Position numbers and translations under genes: made by a program. Shown in pieces: positions 45,854 through 59,415 of a stretch of 64,000 bases of DNA. The notes under the pieces are model-generated. The model ran no database searches and was not told the origin of the DNA. It worked only from the letters and a program-made list of their open reading frames with translations. Position 1 is the first letter of the stretch; every line of letters begins with the position of its first letter. Origin of the DNA: an uncultured Gammaproteobacteria bacterium (lineage in GTDB: Bacteria; Pseudomonadota; Gammaproteobacteria; Arenicellales; Poriferihabitantaceae); contig CAMYNW010000021.1 of NCBI GenBank assembly GCA_947259885.1, positions 8,836-72,835 on the forward strand. Reading direction: 5' to 3'.

Positions 45854-47179
45854 ATGAAAAGTACAGCAGAAAGAATAGTAGACCCAGCACCAATGTCGGC
45901 TCAATCGAACGATGACTTGATGCAGCGGCGCGGGCAGGCAGTGGCACGTGGCGTGGGTGCCATTCATCCGGTATTTGCCGAACGGGCCGAGAATGCCACG
46001 GTGTGGGATGTCGAAGGAAATGAGTATATTGACTTCGCTGGCGGCATTGCGGTGCTGAATACCGGCCACCTTCATCCCAGGGTTAAACAGGCGGCGGCCC
46101 GGCAGCTCGAAGCATTTTCCCATACCTGTTTTATGGTGCTGGGATATGAAAGTTATGTCGAGTTGTGCGAGAAGATAAATGCTCTGGTGCCCGGGGATTT
46201 CGCGAAGAAAAGCGCGCTGTTCACCTCCGGCTCGGAGGCGGTAGAAAATGCGGTCAAGGTTGCGCGAGCATGGACCAAACGAGCCGGCGTGATTGCCTTT
46301 ACTTCCGGTTATCACGGTCGCACCATGGCGACTCTGGCGCTTACCGGCAAAGTCGCCCCTTACAGTACCGGAATGGGGCTTATGCCGGGTGCGGTTTTTC
46401 GTGCTGAGTTCCCTTGTGCAGTGCATGGTATCAGTGAAGATGACGCGATTGAGTCAATTCATAGAATTTTTAAAAATGACGCGGAACCAGCTGATATTGC
46501 GGCAATAATTTTAGAGCCGGTACAGGGCGAAGGTGGATTTTATGTTGCCTCTCCAAGCTTTATGCAGCGCTTGCGCGAGATTTGCGATGACCACGGTATT
46601 GTGCTGATAGCAGACGAAGTGCAGACCGGTGCCGGCCGAACCGGGACCTTCTTCGCAATGGAACAGATGGGGGTGGCGGCTGACGTTACCGCATTCGCAA
46701 AATCTATCGCTGGAGGATTTCCCTTATCAGGAATAACGGGTAAGGCGGAAATCATTGATGCAATCGCCCCTGGAGGTCTTGGCGGTACCTATGGCGGCAG
46801 CCCTATTGCCTGCGCGGCGGCACTTGCGGTGCTGGAGGTGTTTGAAGAGGAGAAACTGGTCAAACGATCGGCAGAAATTGGAAAGGTGATGACCGAACGG
46901 CTAACAAAGCTCGCCGATCGTTACAGCACCATAGGGGAAGTTCGGGGTCTGGGCGCCATGGTAGCCGTTGAGTTGTTCAAGGATGGCGATCATAGTCAGC
47001 CTGATGCCAAACTCGCAGCAGATATATTATCTCTGGCCAGGAACAAGGGATTGATTCTGCTGTCATGCGGTACTTACGGCAATGTGGTGAGGTTACTTGT
47101 GCCGCTCACGGTGCCAGATCAACAGCTAAACAAAGGTTTGGACATCATCGAACTGTGTTTTGACGAACTGATGGGCTGA
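45854..47179 (+). CDS. gabT: 4-aminobutyrate--2-oxoglutarate transaminase
   Basis: Class III aminotransferase: VWDVEGNEYIDFAGGIAVLNTGHLHPRV, LIADEVQTGAGRTG, FAKSIAGGFPLSG (PLP-Lys). The start could also be the ATG at 45893. Confidence 0.9.
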   Translation: MKSTAERIVDPAPMSAQSNDDLMQRRGQAVARGVGAIHPVFAERAENATVWDVEGNEYIDFAGGIAVLNTGHLHPRVKQAAARQLEAFSHTCFMVLGYESYVELCEKINALVPGDFAKKSALFTSGSEAVENAVKVARAWTKRAGVIAFTSGYHGRTMATLALTGKVAPYSTGMGLMPGAVFRAEFPCAVHGISEDDAIESIHRIFKNDAEPADIAAIILEPVQGEGGFYVASPSFMQRLREICDDHGIVLIADEVQTGAGRTGTFFAMEQMGVAADVTAFAKSIAGGFPLSGITGKAEIIDAIAPGGLGGTYGGSPIACAAALAVLEVFEEEKLVKRSAEIGKVMTERLTKLADRYSTIGEVRGLGAMVAVELFKDGDHSQPDAKLAADILSLARNKGLILLSCGTYGNVVRLLVPLTVPDQQLNKGLDIIELCFDELMG

Positions 47180-47261: not shown

Positions 47262-48764
47262 TCAGTTGGCAGGGAATTGCGGCTCGGATAACTCCCCGGG
47301 GGGCGACACGGATTCCAGATCAGGAATGTAACCCACCTGCGCAGAGTCAGTCTGCCCGCCGTCGGCTCTTGCGACAAAATCGGGAGCAATTTGGTGCTGC
47401 CAGCCGATAATCTTTTCGATTGCTTCGGCGGCATCCAGCACCTCCAGATCGTGGCCTGGTCGCCCCATAATCTGTAAACCCACCGGTAATCCGCTTTCTC
47501 CAAAGCCCATTGGAATAGAGCAGGACGGCATACCGGTTAAGTTGGCGTCGTAGAGTAACCCAGCCCAGTCAAGCCACGGATAGGTGATCTCTTTTTGTTC
47601 AATCGCAACCGGATGGGTTAGAGAGCCGTCGAACGCTTCGCAGCCAAGCGCAGGGGTGATCAGAATGTCGGAATGACTGCGATCGAACATTGCGCTGTAG
47701 GCGTTGAAAATTTCTCTCTGATGCGAATGGGAATCGGCGATATCCTGATCGGTAAACCTGCTGCCGAAGTGAATGAATTCGCGTGCATACCTGCCTACGA
47801 TATGCCTGAAATCGGGGTGATTGAATTCCTGATCTCGTTTATGTAGCCACATGTCATGGGTCGCAAGAGAGGCCCATGTGACGACCGAAGAAGTCAAGCC
47901 GGGATTGGATTCGATACAGGTGATTTCTGCATCTGCAAGCTGCAGGGCTACCTGCCTGAAACACTCGCGAATCGAAGCGTCTACGGGTGCAAAACCAAGA
48001 TCTTCAGAAACGACAATTCTTAGCGGGGCGTCTTTTTCTTTCTTCGGCGCTGGCATCAGTTTGTCGTGGGTCGCGACGGCATCGAACATCAACCTGGCGT
48101 CCGCTACCGAGCGTGCCATTGGACCGTAGGCGATCAAAGCGTCCCAGGTTCCGAAGCCCGGGCCTCGAGGCACCACACCGTGGGTAGGTTTAAACCCGAC
48201 GACACCGCAAAAGGCTGCGGGGATGCGGATCGAACCCCCACCATCACCACCCAAGGAGAAACTGCCAACTCCCGCTGCAATGGATGCCGCGGCGCCGCCG
48301 GAAGACCCACCGGGCGTTTTACTCAGGTCCCACGGATTACGGGTCGCCCCATACAGCGGGGAATTGTTGGTACCGCTGAGACAAAATTCAGGGCAGGTGG
48401 TCTTACCGAAAATCACCGCACCGGCTTGCTCCAGCCTGTCGACCGAGCGGCAGGTCGCATTGGGAATAAAATTGACCAGGGATTGCGACCCGTTGGCGCA
48501 GCGCACCCCCTTTAGCCATTGCGAATCCTTGATTGAAACGGGCAGTCCACAGAGTGGGCCTGGGCGTCCTCTTCGTAGGACTCTGTCGGCCTTGTCCGCG
48601 GCCTCCATGGCGCGCTGGTCCAGGCGCAATGCAATCGGATTGACTGTGCCCGCTATGCGGGTTGCCCGTTCAAGAGTGGCCTCAAGTAATTCGGTAGCGG
48701 AAACCTCTCTGCGCAGGAGTGCGTCGCGTTGTGCTAACGCTGATCGATCAATCCAGGAAGTCAT
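47262..48764 (-). CDS. Amidase (amidase-signature family)
   Basis: 500 aa with the AS motif GGSSGGAAASIAAGVGSFSLGGDGGGSIRIPAAFCGVVGFKPTHG. Confidence 0.85.
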   Translation of the reverse strand: MTSWIDRSALAQRDALLRREVSATELLEATLERATRIAGTVNPIALRLDQRAMEAADKADRVLRRGRPGPLCGLPVSIKDSQWLKGVRCANGSQSLVNFIPNATCRSVDRLEQAGAVIFGKTTCPEFCLSGTNNSPLYGATRNPWDLSKTPGGSSGGAAASIAAGVGSFSLGGDGGGSIRIPAAFCGVVGFKPTHGVVPRGPGFGTWDALIAYGPMARSVADARLMFDAVATHDKLMPAPKKEKDAPLRIVVSEDLGFAPVDASIRECFRQVALQLADAEITCIESNPGLTSSVVTWASLATHDMWLHKRDQEFNHPDFRHIVGRYAREFIHFGSRFTDQDIADSHSHQREIFNAYSAMFDRSHSDILITPALGCEAFDGSLTHPVAIEQKEITYPWLDWAGLLYDANLTGMPSCSIPMGFGESGLPVGLQIMGRPGHDLEVLDAAEAIEKIIGWQHQIAPDFVARADGGQTDSAQVGYIPDLESVSPPGELSEPQFPAN

Positions 48765-48820
48765 TAAAGTTTATTGGGTGAAAGCGTCGATTTAAGGAGC
48801 GGGACAGTTACGAGTTTCTA

Positions 48821-49249
48821 TTGTTTTGCACTGACACTATGGACCATAATGTAGGCAAGCAGCTGTTTATTGTCAACACTATGGATCAAGATGTATCTCT
48901 GGGGATTGTTGGTGCCATTGCCCAGGCAGATATCGCACCGATGCGCGGAGCGGGCCGTATCGCCGATTATGCCCTGATTTACCGGGTAGTGCGCCTGCAT
49001 CAGGGTGGCGGTTACGGTGATCAGAACCGGCATCCGCTTGCCTGGGCCGCCGCGCTGTACGTCGATGGTCAGCTTTATCGCGTGTTCAACGCCCGGGGTG
49101 CCGGACGTGAATGGGTGAGCCTGGATAAACTTGGTAACTGGCTGCGAGAACAGGGTTTCTGGTACTGGTGGACGCGCAACGATCTCGAAGTTCTGGGTGA
49201 GGCAGAGAACGAATTCGAAGCACCGGATCCGCCCTTTATGCCGCTCTAA
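48821..49249 (+). CDS. Hypothetical protein
   Basis: 142-aa ORF with plausible coding composition. The C-terminal part reads YRVFNARGAGREWVSLDKLGNWLREQGFWYWW. I recognise no family, and the start is uncertain. Confidence 0.4.
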   Translation: MFCTDTMDHNVGKQLFIVNTMDQDVSLGIVGAIAQADIAPMRGAGRIADYALIYRVVRLHQGGGYGDQNRHPLAWAAALYVDGQLYRVFNARGAGREWVSLDKLGNWLREQGFWYWWTRNDLEVLGEAENEFEAPDPPFMPL

Positions 49250-49255
49250 GCAGCT

Positions 49256-50251
49256 CTATTCTTTCGCATAATCAACTGCATAGGAACCACTTACAAAGTG
49301 GTTTATGGCAAAGTCCCACCGATGCTGCGGCCAGAGGTAGGACGCCTGGCGCGAAACAGGTCGGTACACCGCGGTATAGAGCGTGCCGAATCCGCGCCGG
49401 TAGGCATTGTTAAAAATCGGGGGCCTTAAGAATCCGGCGATCAGACCTTCGGCAGTTTCTTCGGTATCCGCCAGGATGGATTGCACCGCGCTTTCTCGCT
49501 CGAGCGTAGCGGTTGCCCAGGCGTGGCGCGGCCACTCCACTTTTCCCTGGTGATTGGTGGCGACCGGCACCTGGCGTACTACCGGCAGTTTATCCGGGGC
49601 GACATAAACCGTGGCAAACCTTTGAGATGGATCCACCACTGTAATGTTGTACGACATGTGGGTCGGCACTCTTTGCAGCACTTCGATCGCCTCATCAGTA
49701 GTTTTACAAAATTCGAGGATGTAACGAAGAATGAGCGGTATGCCAAATCCCTTTCCAGATTCGAGGCGGCCTCCAAATGCCAGCGACACCGCGAGTCCCG
49801 ATTCATTGATACCGTCGAGGACACCCCAGAGGGCGTCTGACATGGCGATCACGGTTTGTCCGTTCCAGCACGATTTCAGCAGCACCGCTTCGAGTCGCTG
49901 TGCACTGTAATCGTAATTGCGCACCAGCAATGGTTCGTCACCGGTCCAGACCGCTTGTGTGCACCCACTGAGATAGGGAGGGGGGCAATAAAGAGATAGG
50001 AAGCGGGACACCATATCGCCGCCGCCTGCCAGTTCGCACAGACGTTCGAAAGTGGGGAGCAGTTCCGGCATATGCTGACGCAGAGCGCGTCTGCTTTCCA
50101 CATAACTTGGTCGGGCTGCGTCCCCCTCGGACGAAAACCAGGTCTGATAGAGCGGCCAAAGGCGACGCTGCAGTGCCTGCCAATGCGTTCCCGGCAGCGA
50201 CTCCTCGACAGCCTGAAAGGTCGCCGAGGTCGCATTGTGCGAGCTGGTCAA
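49256..50251 (-). CDS. C45-family Ntn enzyme (acyl-CoA:6-APA acyltransferase / choloylglycine hydrolase-like)
   Basis: 331 aa. Candidate autoprocessing site YLSG-CTQAVW, followed by LLVRNYDY, as in C45 peptidases. The TTG start directly abuts the stop of the ATP-grasp gene (TAG-TTG). Confidence 0.55.
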   Translation of the reverse strand: MTSSHNATSATFQAVEESLPGTHWQALQRRLWPLYQTWFSSEGDAARPSYVESRRALRQHMPELLPTFERLCELAGGGDMVSRFLSLYCPPPYLSGCTQAVWTGDEPLLVRNYDYSAQRLEAVLLKSCWNGQTVIAMSDALWGVLDGINESGLAVSLAFGGRLESGKGFGIPLILRYILEFCKTTDEAIEVLQRVPTHMSYNITVVDPSQRFATVYVAPDKLPVVRQVPVATNHQGKVEWPRHAWATATLERESAVQSILADTEETAEGLIAGFLRPPIFNNAYRRGFGTLYTAVYRPVSRQASYLWPQHRWDFAINHFVSGSYAVDYAKE

Positions 50252-51712
50252 CTATAAAATCTTGAACGCGTCCTTTTTAAGTCCAACCGGCGGTGCAGGC
50301 GCATTATCAACCTCTTCCAGAGACATGCCCTGGTACTCGCCGACGATGCCGTTTATCCACGCCTTGGCGCGATCGTTTAATTCAAAATCGTCGGTCATCA
50401 GACGCCCCCGTGTGATCAAGATCCCAAGATCGGCACCCTTGTAGCGGTAATCTCCCTGACCGCTGATGCGCAGATAGAAGCCATGGCTCTCATCTTCAAC
50501 CGCACGCCGGTGATAATCGAAGCGTGTAAACGAAATACTATTGTCATCCTGCAGTTTCCAGATGCCTGATTCTGGCGCTTTGGTAATGTAGTCGATGCTT
50601 TGATCGACATGTTTAATCACCAGCTGGCTCCAGCTGTCAATATTGTCAGGATCCGCCCAGCGCTGATTGAGTTCATCGATATCGATTTCAAACGGTACAT
50701 CGGAAAACTCCAGCAGGTGAAACAGAAAAAGCGGCGCATCAGCATGGGCAAACGCAGCGTGATTGGTCATTGAGCTGGCGCCGGTCACCCTTGGATTCAA
50801 TTCACCCAGATAGAGCTCATTGCTGGCCAGGTCGATCAGAAAGTCTAATTCAAAGTAGCCGCGATACCCTTCCTCGCGGAGCGCTTCGCCAAAGTTTCGG
50901 GTGTAGTTTCGTGCTTTGTCGCGTATCTCCTGGTTGAATGAATCAGCAAAAATTTCATTACCACACCATCCGCCCTTGTACGGTGTCAATTCCTTGAACC
51001 CAACGAGTTCTGTCATTAAAGGACCAACGATGGTGCCGCATTTCGTTGCGCAGGCTTCGATGGCTGAACCCCGGCAGTTGATGCGTTTCATTATTTTCAT
51101 TTCCGGTTCGGCAATGATTTCTTCCTTGTGCCTGTCCCAGTCCTCTTCGCTCGCGATAAAGAAGGTGGTTTTTCCGGAGTCCCCGAATGCGGTTTGCAGA
51201 ACGAGATCGTCACCCAGGCCTTCGGAGGCTTTCTGCAGATCATCATAGCTTTTTATGGTGGCGAGTGCGTTTGGTACGCTTGGCACACCGGCACGATTGC
51301 CAATGCGTACCGTTTCGATCTTGTTATCCATCTTTGATCTGAGCTTCGCCGAAGGAAACCATATATCCAGTCCGGTTTCCTTGCAAATCGATTCAGTCTC
51401 CTCGTTAAACATCAGAAACACCGCTTTACCGCCGGGACCCCGATGGTTGATGTAGTCCACTACCTCTTTATGCTGCAGCAAGTAGTTGTTGATATCTTCG
51501 ATACCAGTAAATTCCCGGTGCGGCTGTTCTTCAGGGATCCGCACGTTAGGGTGACGGCCGTCGAAACAATCGATGTAGTTGATATAGCGAAAGTTGCGTA
51601 CCCATTCGTTGATGCCAAGCAGGTTAAAATTGGTGGCGCTAACGAAATAAATCGGTGTTTCATTACGGTGAAAATAACGACGGATATCAGAAAGGCCTGA
51701 CAGTTTTTTCAT
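50252..51712 (-). CDS. ATP-grasp family carboxylate-amine/peptide ligase-like protein
   Basis: LVLQTAFGDSGKTTFFI, GGWCGNEI, YRGYFELDFLID, and LGELNPRVTGAS (Mg/ATP-binding E-x-N) are ATP-grasp hallmarks. I prefer the ATG at 51712 (GAGGA 8 nt upstream) over the GTG at 51880. Confidence 0.6.
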   Translation of the reverse strand: MKKLSGLSDIRRYFHRNETPIYFVSATNFNLLGINEWVRNFRYINYIDCFDGRHPNVRIPEEQPHREFTGIEDINNYLLQHKEVVDYINHRGPGGKAVFLMFNEETESICKETGLDIWFPSAKLRSKMDNKIETVRIGNRAGVPSVPNALATIKSYDDLQKASEGLGDDLVLQTAFGDSGKTTFFIASEEDWDRHKEEIIAEPEMKIMKRINCRGSAIEACATKCGTIVGPLMTELVGFKELTPYKGGWCGNEIFADSFNQEIRDKARNYTRNFGEALREEGYRGYFELDFLIDLASNELYLGELNPRVTGASSMTNHAAFAHADAPLFLFHLLEFSDVPFEIDIDELNQRWADPDNIDSWSQLVIKHVDQSIDYITKAPESGIWKLQDDNSISFTRFDYHRRAVEDESHGFYLRISGQGDYRYKGADLGILITRGRLMTDDFELNDRAKAWINGIVGEYQGMSLEEVDNAPAPPVGLKKDAFKIL

Positions 51713-51891
51713 TGTATTGATCCTCGTTTCTGAATTTTCCGGCTCATGAGAAGCAGGTTCTTGAGCGGTTTCAGGGCTAATGGATTGGTGTGGCGGGTCC
51801 GGTGGTAGCACCGTTTGGAACCAAAGCTTCAACCTGCTGAACAGGGAGGCGATAAATGTGAGTATAGGTGCTTCAGCCACGAAAGGAAATG

Positions 51892-54678
51892 TTATGCGGT
51901 TCGCTCAGCAGCTCTGGCAAGCGCATCGTCGGTAAACACAATCAATCCGAGTTCAGGTTCGTATCCGTGAATCTCCTTAACATCCAGCTTACGCATGAAA
52001 GTGATGATGTCGCTGCTGATGACCTGGCCCGGCACTAAAACTGGGAAGCCCGGCGGATAGGGGATGACAAAGCTCGCCGATACCAGCTCACGCCCTGCGT
52101 CGATTTCCTTCTCAAGACCGCCGTTACCGATATCCACATAGCTGTAATTGATATCGTCATAAGCGAGAAAGAATGCCTTTCTTAGATCTCCATCAGGCGT
52201 GTTTTTGTCTGGTTGAGGCCGGAACGCATCATGGAAGCGGCTGAAATCCGGCAGCGGGGGTAAATCTTTGGTAAGTGAATGTACCCTTTTTTGTAGCAGA
52301 CGAATTTCCGAGCTGCTGTATTCCTCGCGCTCTTGTTCAAGTTCGTCGGCTATTTTTGTCAATACCTCTATCAAGAACGCGACAGAGCTGCGGGTGGTAC
52401 CTATATTGGTCATAAACAGTACCGTGTTACGCGACGTCTTGTTGATCTGAATGCCGTATTTATCCATCAGGTACTGATTTTTGAAGGTGTCGCCGTCAAT
52501 TCCGGTTTCACCAAGATACAGCGTCAGCCTTGTCGGATCGACCACGAAGTCGTCGATCTCCCAGGCTTTTTCCATTCTGTCATTTACCCATCCGGTTTCA
52601 GGATCGAAATAAGACTTGATGCCGGAAGGTCGATATTCTTCAGGCACCATATCCTCGGCCACCAGGAAGCGGAAGTGCTTGCGCAGCTTCGGACTGTTTG
52701 CGACCTGCTCACGAATGGTCATCGCAAGTTCGATTTGCTTCTGCACCATTTCATAGCCTTCAAGCTCTACCTGCCTGCGGCCCAGATCCAGCGATGCGAG
52801 AATCTGGTAGTTGGGCGATGTCGAGGTGTGGGTCATGAACGCTTCGTCGAAAGGTTCGGCGACTTTTTGTTTGAAAAGCTGATCGTAAATATGAATCATG
52901 GACCCCTGGCGCAGTGCGGTCAGGGATTTGTGCGTAGATTGTGTTGCGTATACCCGCACCTTGACCAGGTCTGGGTCGGGTAGCAGTCGGGTTTCCAGAA
53001 GTTGCTCCGGGGTTGGTGCATCGCCAAGCGCCTTCTTTTGCGCAATATATTGTTCGCGGTAATCTTCAGTGCGGTAGCGGATGGCGAGTTTTCTCGCCAC
53101 GGCCATGGCGGTCCGCTGACGATAGGTGGGCGTGAATGCGGCAAATGCAAACCAAGCTTCGTCCCACAGAAACACGAGGTCCGGTTTGATTGCCAGACAT
53201 TCTTCCATCACTCGTTCAACATTGTAGACCACGCCGTCAAAAGTACAGTTGGTCAACAGCAACATCTTTACCTGGTCCAACCGGCCCTCGGTGCGATACG
53301 TCAGCAGCCTCTGTTTGATTTCCGAGAGACTTACCGCACCATACATCGAATATTGGTGCAGGGGATAAGAATCCAGGTAAGACACGTGAGCGCCAGAAAG
53401 CACCAGACCGTAATGATGGGATTTATGGCAGTCCCGATCGATCAGGACGATATCACGCGGTTTTACCAGCGACTGCACCACGATCTTATTCGCGGTGGAG
53501 GTTCCGTTGGTGACAAAGTAGGTTCGTCTGGCGCCAAAGGCCCTGGCTGCATATTCCTGGGCACGTTTGATTGGACCGTGAGGCTGCAGCAGGGAATCGA
53601 GCCCGCCGGATGTCGCCGAGGTTTCGGCCAGGAATATGTTAATGCCGTAAAAATTGACCATATCCTGAATCCAGTTCGAATTCGTAACCGATTTGCCACG
53701 CGAAATGGGCATGGCATGAAACACCCCGGTGGGTTTCTGGCTGTATGATCGCAGCGCGTTGAAAAATGGCGTTTCGTACCGACGCTGGATCCCTCGTAGC
53801 AGATTGAGATGCAGCTCCAGGTAGTCGTCGTGACGATAAAACACACGCCGGAAGATTTTCGAGCTGGAGCCAGCAATGGATTCAACGGATTCGTCAGTGA
53901 CCAGATACAAATCGATTTCTGGCCTGAGTTCGGCCAGCACAGCGCCCAGCATTGGACCATTCCCGGTATCTGCCATATCTTCATAATCAACATCACTGAT
54001 CGAACGCGTGTAGCGGTTCAGAATCTCCAGATGGTTTTTTGACCGCAGCGGAAACTCGTAACGGATAACGCATGCCTGAATATTGTAATTGAACACTAAT
54101 GCTATCAGTGCGTCTTCAAAACTGGGCACCGCGATCAGGTTATAGACGAAATCATCCTCGGGCCGGATTACACGCTCGAATCCTTGTTTTAGAGTATCAA
54201 TTTCCTGATATGCGTTTTTATCGACGAACAGTGTTTCAAAGTAGGGCTTGTGGTCCGTCGCGGCCTGGCGTTTTTTATCCTCCGCGTAGTCTCGTGAATC
54301 TTCTCTGGCTGCGTTGAGCGGGTGAATTTCCTTGAGCCCTTGTTGACGGTAATTACCGCTGGTAATATTCCAGACAACATTGGAGATGCATTGTTCGAAT
54401 GCGGGATAGTTCTTGCCCTTAAGTAACTGATGAAGGAGTTCCATCAGGCTGTGCGAGGGGTAGGCGGTATATTCTTCTAGTGTTTTAAGTACGCCCAGTA
54501 AATACTCGACCTTCTGTAGAGCGTCGGAATAGTCCTGTCTAGACTGCTGCCGCTTTCTTAGTCGGGTGGCGTATTCTGATAGCCTGTGCCATCCATCAAA
54601 GCGGAACTGTGTCGGACTATGAAAGTAATCCAGACGTATTTTTTCGTCTTCAGTCTCTCGGTTGTGGTGTTTATTCAA
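51892..54678 (-). CDS. Large (928 aa) Orn/Lys/Arg decarboxylase-fold PLP enzyme with an extra N-terminal extension
   Basis: OKR_DC_1 features: FHAMPISRGKS, SATSGGLDSLL, TNGTSTANK, DRDCHKSHHYG, and YATQSTHKSLTALRQGSMIH (PLP-Lys). A CheY-like wing segment lies at about aa 145-215, preceded by about 140 aa that I cannot assign. Confidence 0.85.
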   Translation of the reverse strand: MNKHHNRETEDEKIRLDYFHSPTQFRFDGWHRLSEYATRLRKRQQSRQDYSDALQKVEYLLGVLKTLEEYTAYPSHSLMELLHQLLKGKNYPAFEQCISNVVWNITSGNYRQQGLKEIHPLNAAREDSRDYAEDKKRQAATDHKPYFETLFVDKNAYQEIDTLKQGFERVIRPEDDFVYNLIAVPSFEDALIALVFNYNIQACVIRYEFPLRSKNHLEILNRYTRSISDVDYEDMADTGNGPMLGAVLAELRPEIDLYLVTDESVESIAGSSSKIFRRVFYRHDDYLELHLNLLRGIQRRYETPFFNALRSYSQKPTGVFHAMPISRGKSVTNSNWIQDMVNFYGINIFLAETSATSGGLDSLLQPHGPIKRAQEYAARAFGARRTYFVTNGTSTANKIVVQSLVKPRDIVLIDRDCHKSHHYGLVLSGAHVSYLDSYPLHQYSMYGAVSLSEIKQRLLTYRTEGRLDQVKMLLLTNCTFDGVVYNVERVMEECLAIKPDLVFLWDEAWFAFAAFTPTYRQRTAMAVARKLAIRYRTEDYREQYIAQKKALGDAPTPEQLLETRLLPDPDLVKVRVYATQSTHKSLTALRQGSMIHIYDQLFKQKVAEPFDEAFMTHTSTSPNYQILASLDLGRRQVELEGYEMVQKQIELAMTIREQVANSPKLRKHFRFLVAEDMVPEEYRPSGIKSYFDPETGWVNDRMEKAWEIDDFVVDPTRLTLYLGETGIDGDTFKNQYLMDKYGIQINKTSRNTVLFMTNIGTTRSSVAFLIEVLTKIADELEQEREEYSSSEIRLLQKRVHSLTKDLPPLPDFSRFHDAFRPQPDKNTPDGDLRKAFFLAYDDINYSYVDIGNGGLEKEIDAGRELVSASFVIPYPPGFPVLVPGQVISSDIITFMRKLDVKEIHGYEPELGLIVFTDDALARAAERTA

Positions 54679-55325
54679 GTGTCGGTGTTATGATTTTTCG
54701 TACGTACCGTAAACTCATCATACGCTGTTGCGATTATGAGGTCCAGAATCAGTTGCGAGTCACTGACAAACCACAACAACAACTAATCACCTTGCAGAAA
54801 TAACTATTTTTGTATCGTTTCGTGGTTGCTGCTTTATACATCACCACTTTTCTGAGCTTTTTTGCAAGCAGTAAAGTGGAGAAATTTCCAGGCGCGACAT
54901 GGCATATTTTTTCAGGAATTTGGTGCACACGTGAGCGTTTTCTTCATCACCAGTGAACCGATAAAAGTTCTCTATTTTCGATTTGTTGCAGAGCATTCTG
55001 CTGAGTGTTTTGCGTGGGCGTACTGGCTGCTTGTTCAAAGTTTTTACTGCAGTGACCTGAATTTTATCAATGATAATTTATAAATTGGTGGTGTGGCAAA
55101 CCGAGCAGCGGCGCGGACCTGAATTTTTCCAGCGGTCTAGATCGATCGAACTTATGGATAAAACGAAATGACTTGCGAGTGAAGGGCATGCATGATTTCC
55201 CGGCCTTGATTGGCAAAACAGATTAGACTGATAAATGTGCAGGCAATATTTAGCCCATCTATTTGTCAGTTAATGTGTTTTCCGTTATGCATTCTCAGTT
55301 TTTTACTGGAGATTTGGAATCCTGG

Positions 55326-55589
55326 TTAACGTAACGCGCTCAAGTTGGCGGTCAACGAAACATTTGATAGCTCGAGTTGTTCGTTTATCTTGTGTGCCAG
55401 GTCGGCTTCGGGACCGCAGCCAAGTGTAGCGGCGTTACGGTGAGCTACAGTGGTTTGCTGCACAGCCTTAATAAGGGTGCGTTCAACGATCCTGGAAATT
55501 TTCTGCCTCACTTCGTCGGAAAGACTTACATCTGGAAAAGCTCTATCCAGCTCGTCGACTGTATCATCAGCTAGTGTTTTTAAAGTCAT
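55326..55589 (-). CDS. Hypothetical small protein (87 aa)
   Basis: ATG start, helical-looking sequence, isolated transcription unit. No family recognised. Confidence 0.4.
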   Translation of the reverse strand: MTLKTLADDTVDELDRAFPDVSLSDEVRQKISRIVERTLIKAVQQTTVAHRNAATLGCGPEADLAHKINEQLELSNVSLTANLSALR

Positions 55590-55798
55590 GGGATACCCTT
55601 TTAGTAATCAAAGTTATTAGTAATTAAATAAATCAAGATGTGGAAGTATTATATAGTAGTCTTTGCGGCACTTTAATATCTATCTACACACTAAATACAG
55701 CGATCAATAGCATGCTTTGTGTCCGAAGGATTTGCAATTTGCTAGGTTAAGATGTCAACATCGCTCGGGTTGAACATTAACTGGAAAAGAATAGGACA

Positions 55799-56047
55799 AT
55801 GTTTGGAGAAAAGCACGATTTATTGCACGAGTTTCCTCAGCACAAGGAGCTTATTCATCAGTTAAAGATGAATAATGCACGCTTTGCTCGATTATTTGAC
55901 GATTACCATGATATAGAACATGAAGTTCATCGGATAGAGCAGGGAGTTGAAACTCCCTCGGACGAATATCTGGAGCTTCAGAAAAAGAAGCGACTGCACT
56001 TAAAAGACGAGTTGCTTGCAATAATTAAGGGCTCGACAGCGCGTTGA
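55799..56047 (+). CDS. YdcH-like DUF465 protein
   Basis: 82 aa. HDLLHEFPQHKELIHQLKMNNARFARLFDDYHDIEHEVHRIE is a typical DUF465 pattern. Confidence 0.8.
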   Translation: MFGEKHDLLHEFPQHKELIHQLKMNNARFARLFDDYHDIEHEVHRIEQGVETPSDEYLELQKKKRLHLKDELLAIIKGSTAR

Positions 56048-56196
56048 GCGTTAAACCCACGCTATGGTGAAAATACGAAGCCATGCCCATTATAATAACT
56101 CGCAAATGGTAAACAACCTGATGACCTGCACAAACTAACAGGCGACTTCAGTGGTGTTGGAACAAACTGTCGAAAGATACTAGGGGAATAGGGGGC

Positions 56197-58254: not shown

Positions 58255-59415
58255 ATGTCAAAAGACAATCAATCAATCACTAAAAAACAATTCATGAAAG
58301 AATTGTGGCGTTTTAAAAATGGTTCAATCAGCCGGCGTCAGTTTCTCGGCGTAACGGGGCTGGGGGTCGCCACATCAGTTCTGGCAGGCGCAATGCCCGC
58401 ATTGATTCCACGAAAAGCCTGGTCCGCATCGGATATTGGTGATCGCGTAGTGTTAGCAACCTGGCCTAACTACCATGATCCGGCAAATTTCGAAAAATTT
58501 ACCGAGGTAACTGGTGCGCATGTCCAGGTAAATGTATTTGGCTCTAACGAAGAGATGCTGGCCAAGTTACAGGCGGGTGGCAGCGGTTGGGATGTGTTTG
58601 TTCCTACCAATTACACCATTACCACGTATGTTGGCGAAGACCTGATTGAACCACTTGAGCTTTCTAAAATCCCGAATTACGCTGCAGAAGCATTTGATCC
58701 TCGATTTTCCGATGCAGGTTCTGTAGATGGCACCGTATACGCGGTACCAAAAAACTGGGGCACAACGGGTTACGTGGTTAACAACAAACACACTGATGGT
58801 CGGAAGTTGACCAGCTGGAAAGATTTCTGGGACATTTCGATGAATGAGTTTACGGGCAGGACCATGGTTCATGACTATCAACTTACTACCATAGGTAATG
58901 CTCTAAAGTATTTTGGCTATTCGTTTAACTCGGTAGATCCAGCTGAATTGGCCGATGCCGAGAAATTGCTGCTGGAAGTTAAACCACACCTTTTTGCGAT
59001 AAATAGTGACTATCAACCGCCACTGAGAAACGGCGATGCGTGGATGTCAATGTGCTGGACAGGTGACGGAAAACAACTCAATACAGATATACCAGAAATG
59101 GAATACGTCCTCGGTGTGGAAGGTGGGGAAATCTGGAGTGATTACTTTGCCGTTCCGAGAGGAGCTGAACACCCGGATGCTGGTTATGCATTAATTGACT
59201 TCATGCTTGACCCAGCAGTTAATGCAAAGGAAGTTTTGGCACATGGCTATCCGGTGGCGGATAGTCGAACCAACGATTTGTTGCCCAAGGAGCTTCTGGA
59301 GGATCCGATTTTATACCCTGCCCAGGAGTTGCTTGACGCGTTGGAATTTGGTGCGGCTGCAACCCTTACAGATCCCAACCGTGCTGAATTGTTAGCCCGC
59401 TTTAAGGCGGCCTGA
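58255..59415 (+). CDS. Polyamine-type (PotD/PotF family) periplasmic binding protein with a Tat-type signal
   Basis: 386 aa. SRRQFLGVTGLGVATSVLAGA, then VVLATWPNYHDP, VFVPTNY, YAVPKNWGTTG, MCWTGDG. Confidence 0.85.
   Translation: MSKDNQSITKKQFMKELWRFKNGSISRRQFLGVTGLGVATSVLAGAMPALIPRKAWSASDIGDRVVLATWPNYHDPANFEKFTEVTGAHVQVNVFGSNEEMLAKLQAGGSGWDVFVPTNYTITTYVGEDLIEPLELSKIPNYAAEAFDPRFSDAGSVDGTVYAVPKNWGTTGYVVNNKHTDGRKLTSWKDFWDISMNEFTGRTMVHDYQLTTIGNALKYFGYSFNSVDPAELADAEKLLLEVKPHLFAINSDYQPPLRNGDAWMSMCWTGDGKQLNTDIPEMEYVLGVEGGEIWSDYFAVPRGAEHPDAGYALIDFMLDPAVNAKEVLAHGYPVADSRTNDLLPKELLEDPILYPAQELLDALEFGAAATLTDPNRAELLARFKAA

Follow-up and report, generated by a model that had tools for sequence, protein, structure and literature searches.

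The closest described relatives of the operon considered here are two enzymes of Mycobacterium tuberculosis. The first, Rv2531c, is a long-form, 'cloaked' L-glutamate decarboxylase (PDB 9N0N, 9N0O and 9N0P; PMC13506015, PMC12329521). In vitro it converts L-glutamate to 4-aminobutyrate (GABA) in a reaction that requires Mg2+, and it is inactive on lysine, ornithine and arginine; its deletion abolishes GABA labelling from glutamate in cells, and an extra N-terminal domain is one of the traits of its subfamily (PMC13506015). The second, Rv1722 (GabtS), joins GABA to trehalose using ATP, with free GABA serving as the acyl donor (bioRxiv 10.64898/2026.04.15.718621). Relatives of both are encoded in a stretch of 64,000 nucleotides (nt), here called the window, from an uncultured Gammaproteobacteria bacterium (GCA_947259885.1, contig CAMYNW010000021.1, positions 8,836-72,835 of the forward strand). 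Three co-directional minus-strand open reading frames (ORFs), established by ORF listing and translation, specify a decarboxylase dependent on pyridoxal phosphate (PLP), an ATP-grasp ligase and a C45-type hydrolase or acyltransferase, together referred to as the trio.

An earlier reading of this stretch from its letters alone (the sequence-only reading) had singled out the trio and assigned it a polyamine-centred role. The features that it named, namely the STHKS, E-L-N-P-R and G-C-T motifs and the TAG stop of the ligase gene directly abutted by the TTG start of the C45 gene, are all present. The proposed role, however, is not supported: the characterised relative of the ligase takes GABA, and the recurrent neighbours of such loci are GABA-shunt genes. 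Rather than a polyamine pathway, the module most likely represents a branch of GABA metabolism that has yet to be described. In the model favoured here, held with evenly balanced confidence, the module converts glutamate to GABA, conjugates the GABA to an acceptor at the expense of ATP, and releases it again. The literature searched contained no description of the trio operon, its hydrolases or its product, in keeping with the earlier failure to match the trio to a described pathway; the enzyme families themselves have been known since 2025-2026.

The decarboxylase

The first gene of the operon encodes a member of OKR_DC_1 (Pfam, E 3e-74) with an STHKS motif at residues 581-585, in which K584 is the PLP lysine. 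Residues 22-923 align to residues 22-904 of the Rv2531c structure 9N0N (E 2e-254; also 9N0O), deposited under the title 'probable amino acid decarboxylase', whereas structures of classical arginine, lysine and ornithine decarboxylases match the core only, at E 1e-53 or worse. The two proteins thus share a four-domain architecture, a length and an end-to-end alignment. The N-terminal extension of about 140 residues that the sequence-only reading left unassigned is real, and it corresponds to the extra domain that precedes the wing domain in the solved Rv2531c structure. Sixty-six orthologs and Rv2531c align from about residue 16-22 through to the end and have a common length, so the idea that the length is an annotation artefact can be rejected. 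K584, H418, K419, R590, T620 and N746 are identical to the PLP lysine, H405, K406, R576, T606 and N731 of Rv2531c, and all six are invariant in the 66 orthologs.

Against the NCBIfam models for lysine, arginine and ornithine decarboxylases (LdcC, CadA, AdiA, SpeC/SpeF), the protein scores far below every equivalog cut-off (195/968, 170/1056, 170/1167, 164/794 and 148/1310 bits, score/cut-off). Given these scores and the full-length homology to Rv2531c, the protein does not classify as a lysine, ornithine or arginine decarboxylase, and there is no support for the earlier suggestion that it makes a diamine or an agmatine-like amine, compounds whose amino acid precursors Rv2531c does not accept (PMC13506015). 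The glutamate decarboxylase activity of the window protein is itself predicted from sequence. No canonical glutamate decarboxylase (GAD) was found in the genome (best match 44 bits against a cut-off of 380), and the 928-residue protein is the sole glutamate decarboxylase candidate found there. Succinate-semialdehyde dehydrogenase (SSADH) is encoded on another contig, C31.

Homologs of the decarboxylase also occur on Sinorhizobium plasmids. A tie to the S. meliloti genes SMa0680/SMa0682 was not made; the fetched record is bare of annotation, and two papers merely list the genes. An apparent decarboxylase::ATP-grasp fusion, P0430, was likewise set aside, as it contains halves of each protein only and may be an assembly artefact.

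The ATP-grasp ligase

The second enzyme, which carries a GELNPRV motif, belongs to NF005096/PRK06524 (778 bits against a cut-off of 684), a family named 'biotin carboxylase'. It is 46% identical over 434 residues (E 9e-143) to P0427, a 'biotin carboxylase-like protein [M. tuberculosis CAS/NITR204]' that stands in here for Rv1722 and whose residues 1-447 constitute the ATP-grasp portion. It is also 48% identical, over the full length, to two mycobacterial homologs from species in Table S1 of the GabtS preprint; one of these, from M. aquaticum, is 51% identical to P0427, as Table S1 would require. A biotin carboxylase identity is rejected on the basis of scores of 21 bits against 626 for accC (TIGR00514) and at most 36 bits against 597-1114 for other models. 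The AlphaFold2 (AF2) model (pLDDT 91) has a three-domain, biotin-carboxylase-like ATP-grasp fold, for which Foldseek returned generic biotin carboxylase and PurK folds only, with biotin carboxylases at a TM-score of about 0.6 and 12-16% identity. Judged from this model, the likeness to biotin carboxylases is one of shared fold only. The earlier assignment as a ligase therefore holds for a mislabelled protein that belongs, by NF005096 membership, to the GabtS family. No solved structure close to either the ligase or the C45 enzyme was found.

The ligase is conserved to an unusual degree, at 67-82% identity across phyla. Its ORF runs from 51880 to 50252 (542 aa, GTG start); however, the first 56 codons are unconserved even when the comparison is limited to relatives with 75-97% core identity, and this stretch was rejected as coding sequence. 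An ATG at 51712 has a GAGGA ribosome-binding site 7 nt upstream, and most homologs are 485-486 aa long. The sequence thus most likely places the start at 51712, leaving a gap of 179 nt after the decarboxylase. At the other end, a disordered C-terminal tail (window 50252-50290) closes with F-K-I-L, invariant in the 13 close relatives aligned. Elsewhere in the Gamma- and Alphaproteobacteria, family members retain it with small variations; distant members have no such motif, and in mycobacterial homologs the ending is G-L-K-P-L. In some Alphaproteobacterial ligases (L016, L019, L022, L024), the core is preceded by a low-complexity N-terminal tract of up to about 380 residues in which Ala, Lys, Thr and Pro abound, and the same kind of tract is found in a named Paeniglutamicibacter ligase and its relatives (P0420-P0424); it is absent from the window ligase.

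Distribution and neighbouring genes

A scan for the ligase with one genome per species recovered at least 578 species, among them the cultured Sulfitobacter litoralis DSM 17584, Marivibrio halodurans, Roseivivax jejudonensis and Thiothrix eikelboomii. The 80 best loci, which are spread over four phyla and include Gamma-, Alpha- and Betaproteobacteria, Planctomycetota and Eiseniibacteriota, were analysed by tblastn and ORF clustering. The order decarboxylase-ligase-C45 is kept in nearly all loci with contigs long enough to show it; two of the exceptions, L026 and L031, lack the decarboxylase and have gabT and a C-N hydrolase gene directly upstream of the ligase and C45 genes. Among 40 relatives, the ligase is present in 16, and C45 is present in the identical 16 and in none of the other 24. 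The decarboxylase accompanies them in 14 of the 16, both misses falling in fragmented assemblies, one with a ligase match that starts at a contig end. No trio gene was detected in the remaining 24 relatives, some of them members of the same genus with complete genomes on a single contig, and the ligase was found in none of 150 other families of the class.

The trio is an accessory unit of scattered distribution whose genes come and go together, and the retained order and co-inheritance bear out its earlier recognition as a genuine unit. The sequence-only reading had named beforehand three findings that would count against it, and on each the evidence went the other way: the genes are syntenic, the ligase does not belong to a well-known family with an unrelated role, and the decarboxylase is not a standard lysine or arginine enzyme with an artefactual length. 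That the module is accessory, horizontally mobile and cytoplasmic forms part of the best explanation offered here, a composite claim for which our confidence stands midway. Both Rv1722 and Rv2531 appear in a published list of genes gained by the ancestor of the slow-growing mycobacteria (PMC3087520), consistent with a shared origin in an operon of this kind. The arrangement in M. tuberculosis is nonetheless different: the window gene heads an operon with the ligase and hydrolases, and the M. tuberculosis decarboxylase gene is not next to Rv1722.

In 30 of the 80 loci, a gabT homolog is found no further than 10 kb from the trio. The recurrent neighbours are gabT, an aldehyde dehydrogenase gene and a TAXI-TRAP transporter; polyamine genes are not among them. 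In about 16 related loci (L011, L012, L015, L020, L021, L039, L047, L053 and others), the TAXI-type TRAP transporter (a DctM-DUF3394 fusion and an NMT1_3 binding protein) is beside the cassette, in most cases together with a Usp gene. It is absent from the window, and may be a route of substrate import where it occurs. The aguBA genes and pot-like ABC transporter that had been taken to support a polyamine role are local company only. The PotD-like binding protein (window 58255-59415) scores 147 bits against a PotD cut-off of 582, and its ligand need not be a polyamine.

Hydrolases associated with the trio

The C45 enzyme matches PF03417 (E 6e-33) and exceeds the family cut-off of NF040521 (C45_proenzyme; 178 bits against 85), confirming the class to which it had been assigned. 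In its processing-like site, S-G-C97-T-Q, an alignment of 11 sequences shows no variation at G96 and C97. Across 73 orthologs, conservation is at least 97% for Cys97, for an R111-N-Y-D-Y motif and for N233-H234. The Cys nucleophile is thus kept, and autoprocessing is predicted.

A second hydrolase is commonly present as well. A C-N hydrolase gene is located within the locus in 62 of the 80 loci, and in about 52 it is immediately upstream of the decarboxylase. The window and the majority of its closest relatives (L001-L003, L005, L006) lack it; on the downstream side of C45 they have orf142 and an amidase-signature (AS) amidase instead. L004 has the trio only. In the window's own genome the cassette-type C-N hydrolase is absent altogether. 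The AS amidase matches PF01425 (314 bits, residues 25-443) and reaches no NCBIfam equivalog cut-off (best 310 bits against 506). It is adjacent in all nine trio-bearing genomes of the window's bacterial family, and present in only one of 15 family members without the trio. That an enzyme of another fold has taken the place of the second hydrolase points to amide cleavage as its function.

Gene fusions also connect ligases to hydrolases. A search among longer proteins recovered natural fusions of the ligase with an AS amidase (P0426), the amidase half of which is 47% identical over 468 aa to the window amidase, and, with either domain coming first, with hydrolases of the beta-lactamase fold (PF00144). 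P0427, the M. tuberculosis strain record, continues from the ligase into a PF00144 domain, and the two genes are therefore neighbours in that strain; the fusion itself looks like a frame error, the alignment breaking at residue 447. The Rv1722 system is therefore similar to the window in family, in ATP-grasp fold and in the adjacency of a hydrolase gene. It differs in the hydrolases themselves, which are C45 and AS enzymes in the window rather than proteins of beta-lactamase fold, and in the C-terminal tail, F-K-I-L being specific to the proteobacterial clade.

The small protein encoded by orf142 has 13 orthologs with 36 invariant residues. It has no Pfam or NCBIfam match, and its AF2 model (pLDDT 75) gave no fold match. 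It is next to C45 in all nine trio-bearing genomes of the window's family and in none of the 15 without the trio. In Alphaproteobacterial loci (L019, L035, L038, L042, L052, L066, L077), an orf142 homolog directly precedes gabT on the other strand, and in most of them a glyoxalase-fold gene separates the two. In one relative of the window's family (G224:C1:2164014-2172024), the decarboxylase is divergent from the ligase, with orf142 and the amidase still adjacent. It is possible that orf142 acts as a regulator of genes linked to GABA, transcribed divergently from them.

Organization of the local module

The operon seen in the sequence-only reading is real in its three genes and too narrow in its extent: with orf142 and the AS amidase added, the local module comprises five genes and occupies 47262-54678 (Table 1). 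The gabT gene, which exceeds its family cut-off (NF005985, 803 bits against 713), is adjacent to the module, two genes away from the trio.

Table 1. Genes of the local module and the nearby gabT gene, in window coordinates
Gene	Coordinates	Strand	Product	Predicted role or context
Decarboxylase	54678..51892	-	928-aa ORF, TTG start; Rv2531c-type long-form (four-domain) KOR-fold PLP decarboxylase	Predicted conversion of L-glutamate to GABA
ATP-grasp ligase	51712..50252	-	Most likely 486 aa; GabtS (Rv1722) family	Predicted GABA carboxylate activation and joining to acceptor
C45	50251..49256	-	331 aa, TTG start; self-cleaving N-terminal nucleophile (Ntn; Cys) hydrolase/acyltransferase	Predicted cleavage or transfer of GABA conjugate
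orf142	48881..49249 (ORF from 48821)	+	122-aa Trp-rich protein	Convergent on C45, divergent from amidase
AS amidase	48764..47262	-	Amidase-signature amidase	Second hydrolase of local module
gabT	45854..47179	+	4-aminobutyrate--2-oxoglutarate transaminase	GABA-draining context gene

Upstream of the operon is a 1.5-kb stretch (window 54679-56196) with 42-44% G+C and no long ORF, within which a DUF465 gene (55799-56047, plus strand) and an unassigned 87-aa ORF (55326-55589, minus strand) are located. The window stretch occurs in sediment metagenomes. In one sediment metagenome run (X1), a 23-nt insertion is present at window 54770, just upstream of the decarboxylase start, in a repeat of the type GTTGTTGTTG; the likely promoter region is thus polymorphic in length. 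Promoter and terminator scans performed no better than with shuffled sequence, and the intergenic regions have no Rfam match and no unusual RNA structure. Exact contigs in two metatranscriptome runs cover the 5' end and the 3' end of the decarboxylase gene, a weak sign of its expression given that carry-over of DNA is possible; lack of coverage elsewhere in the window carries no information.

The acceptor

In the window's own genome, which is 97.3% complete, no OtsA, TreS or TreY was detected above noise; among 50 trio-bearing genomes, 35 have none of these and only 15 have one or more. Because trehalose synthesis genes are missing from the genome and from most trio-bearing genomes, a difference from the mycobacterial system, trehalose is unlikely to be the general acceptor, and it is probably not the acceptor here. 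Since amide cleavage is common to the classes of C45 enzymes, C-N hydrolases and AS amidases, and trehalose genes are missing, the acceptor in proteobacteria is probably an amine, which would give a GABA amide.

Proposed pathway and alternatives

By strong homology, the Rv2531c-type decarboxylase would convert L-glutamate to GABA. The ligase, by family homology, may then phosphorylate the GABA carboxylate with ATP and hand the 4-aminobutyryl group to the acceptor. The C45 enzyme and AS amidase would split this conjugate, or perhaps a side product such as the lactam 2-pyrrolidinone, giving back free GABA, which the adjacent GabT and the genomic SSADH, as annotated, would channel into succinate. 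The conjugate could be a carbon and nitrogen reserve, a stress reserve or a compatible solute, and orf142 may regulate the amidase.

Other systems offer models for such a cycle. Glutathionylspermidine synthetase/amidase (Gss) pairs an ATP-dependent ligase with an amidase for the same bond. There, as here, ligase and hydrolase are kept together: the present pair shares an operon, and fused versions occur in other organisms. Such a pairing allows a regulated pool of conjugate. The hydrolase folds differ, however (CHAP in Gss, C45 and AS here), as do the substrates, and no sequence relationship was found. A second comparison can be drawn at the level of enzyme families. Carnosine/homocarnosine synthase, of the ATP-grasp type, couples an omega-amino acid (beta-alanine or GABA) to an amine, and amides of this kind are split in insects by a C45 Ntn hydrolase, Tan, whose substrates are beta-alanyl amines. 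These two enzymes belong to different organisms and are not known to be encoded together.

Several points weigh against the proposed pathway. For every operon-linked member the product is a prediction, with substrates carried over from homologs with roughly half of their residues in common (for the decarboxylase) or 46% identity (for the ligase). The position equivalent to R718 of Rv2531c is K733 here and lysine in all 66 operon-linked orthologs, albeit a conservative change. Rv2531c itself has a K0.5 for free glutamate of 509 mM, with a Hill number of 4 (PMC13506015), and this poor affinity may mean that free glutamate is not the true substrate. The Rv1722 biochemistry comes from a preprint with enzyme assays at n=1 (bioRxiv 10.64898/2026.04.15.718621). 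As to the acceptor, trehalose uptake or routes such as TreT could still provide trehalose, and the argument for an amine draws on enzyme classes and missing trehalose genes and on nothing further. Finally, the model does not explain the need for two different hydrolases.

The alternative that survives best, although it is unlikely, is a plain GABA shunt, in which the decarboxylase and gabT alone handle GABA and the ATP-grasp, C45 and amidase proteins, having diverged from the Rv1722 system, act on a different carboxylate. Specificity shifts are frequent in ATP-grasp families, 46% identity leaves room for a change of substrate, and the absence of trehalose genes means that at least one substrate must differ. 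Such a separation of functions is hard to reconcile with the strict co-inheritance of ligase and decarboxylase, with the exceptional conservation of the ligase across phyla, and with the loci in which the ligase-C45 pair adjoins gabT where the decarboxylase is missing.

Slightly less likely again is a reversed order of steps. The ATP-grasp enzyme would first tie the gamma-carboxylate of glutamate to an acceptor, either a small molecule or its own C-terminal lysine tail; the decarboxylase would then produce the 4-aminobutyryl conjugate, and the hydrolases would release or transfer it. Gamma-linked glutamate retains the free alpha-amino and alpha-carboxyl groups needed by a PLP decarboxylase and so would still be a suitable substrate, and the disordered tail with its invariant F-K-I-L in the operon-linked clade would offer an attachment site. 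The very high K0.5 of Rv2531c for free glutamate and its hysteresis point in the same direction (PMC13506015). However, purified Rv1722 takes free GABA (bioRxiv 10.64898/2026.04.15.718621), and the loss of GABA labelling from glutamate in cells lacking Rv2531c (PMC13506015) also speaks against it. R576, the proposed binder of a free gamma-carboxylate, is invariant here, and the tail motif is missing in more distant members and replaced by G-L-K-P-L in mycobacterial homologs.

The polyamine route, with decarboxylation to a diamine or agmatine-like amine, addition of a carboxylate by the ATP-grasp enzyme and trimming or transfer of the amide by C45, is very improbable: OKR_DC_1 is best known for lysine, ornithine and arginine decarboxylases, aguB and a PotD-like ABC system are present elsewhere in the window, and the R718-equivalent position differs from Rv2531c, but the decarboxylase is a full-length homolog of an enzyme inactive on those three amino acids and falls far short of all their equivalog cut-offs, GABA-shunt rather than polyamine genes recur beside the 80 loci, and GABA is the acyl donor of the characterised ligase relative.

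With GABA conjugation and release retained as the favoured reading, a more specific version can be put forward tentatively, as less probable than the general one. The proteobacterial module may make an undescribed intracellular GABA amide, in which GABA is joined to an amino acid or amine or forms short oligomers, and two dedicated amidases may cleave it. Marine and soil bacteria would then possess a novel, reversible cycle for storing GABA or for osmoprotection, ancestral to the GABA-trehalose pathway that reached slow-growing mycobacteria by gene transfer.

Implications

Two M. tuberculosis enzymes that were characterised separately in 2025-2026 have homologs outside mycobacteria that are parts of one co-inherited operon, together with unstudied hydrolases. 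The trehalose-gene test, the hydrolase fusions, the AS-amidase replacement and the co-presence counts are new here, and two widespread annotation errors, 'Orn/Lys/Arg decarboxylase' and 'biotin carboxylase', are corrected. The operon provides candidate enzymes for the breakdown step of a GABA conjugate and a testable origin for the mycobacterial GABA-trehalose pathway. A new GABA-containing metabolite is predicted in hundreds of environmental species, several of which are culturable.

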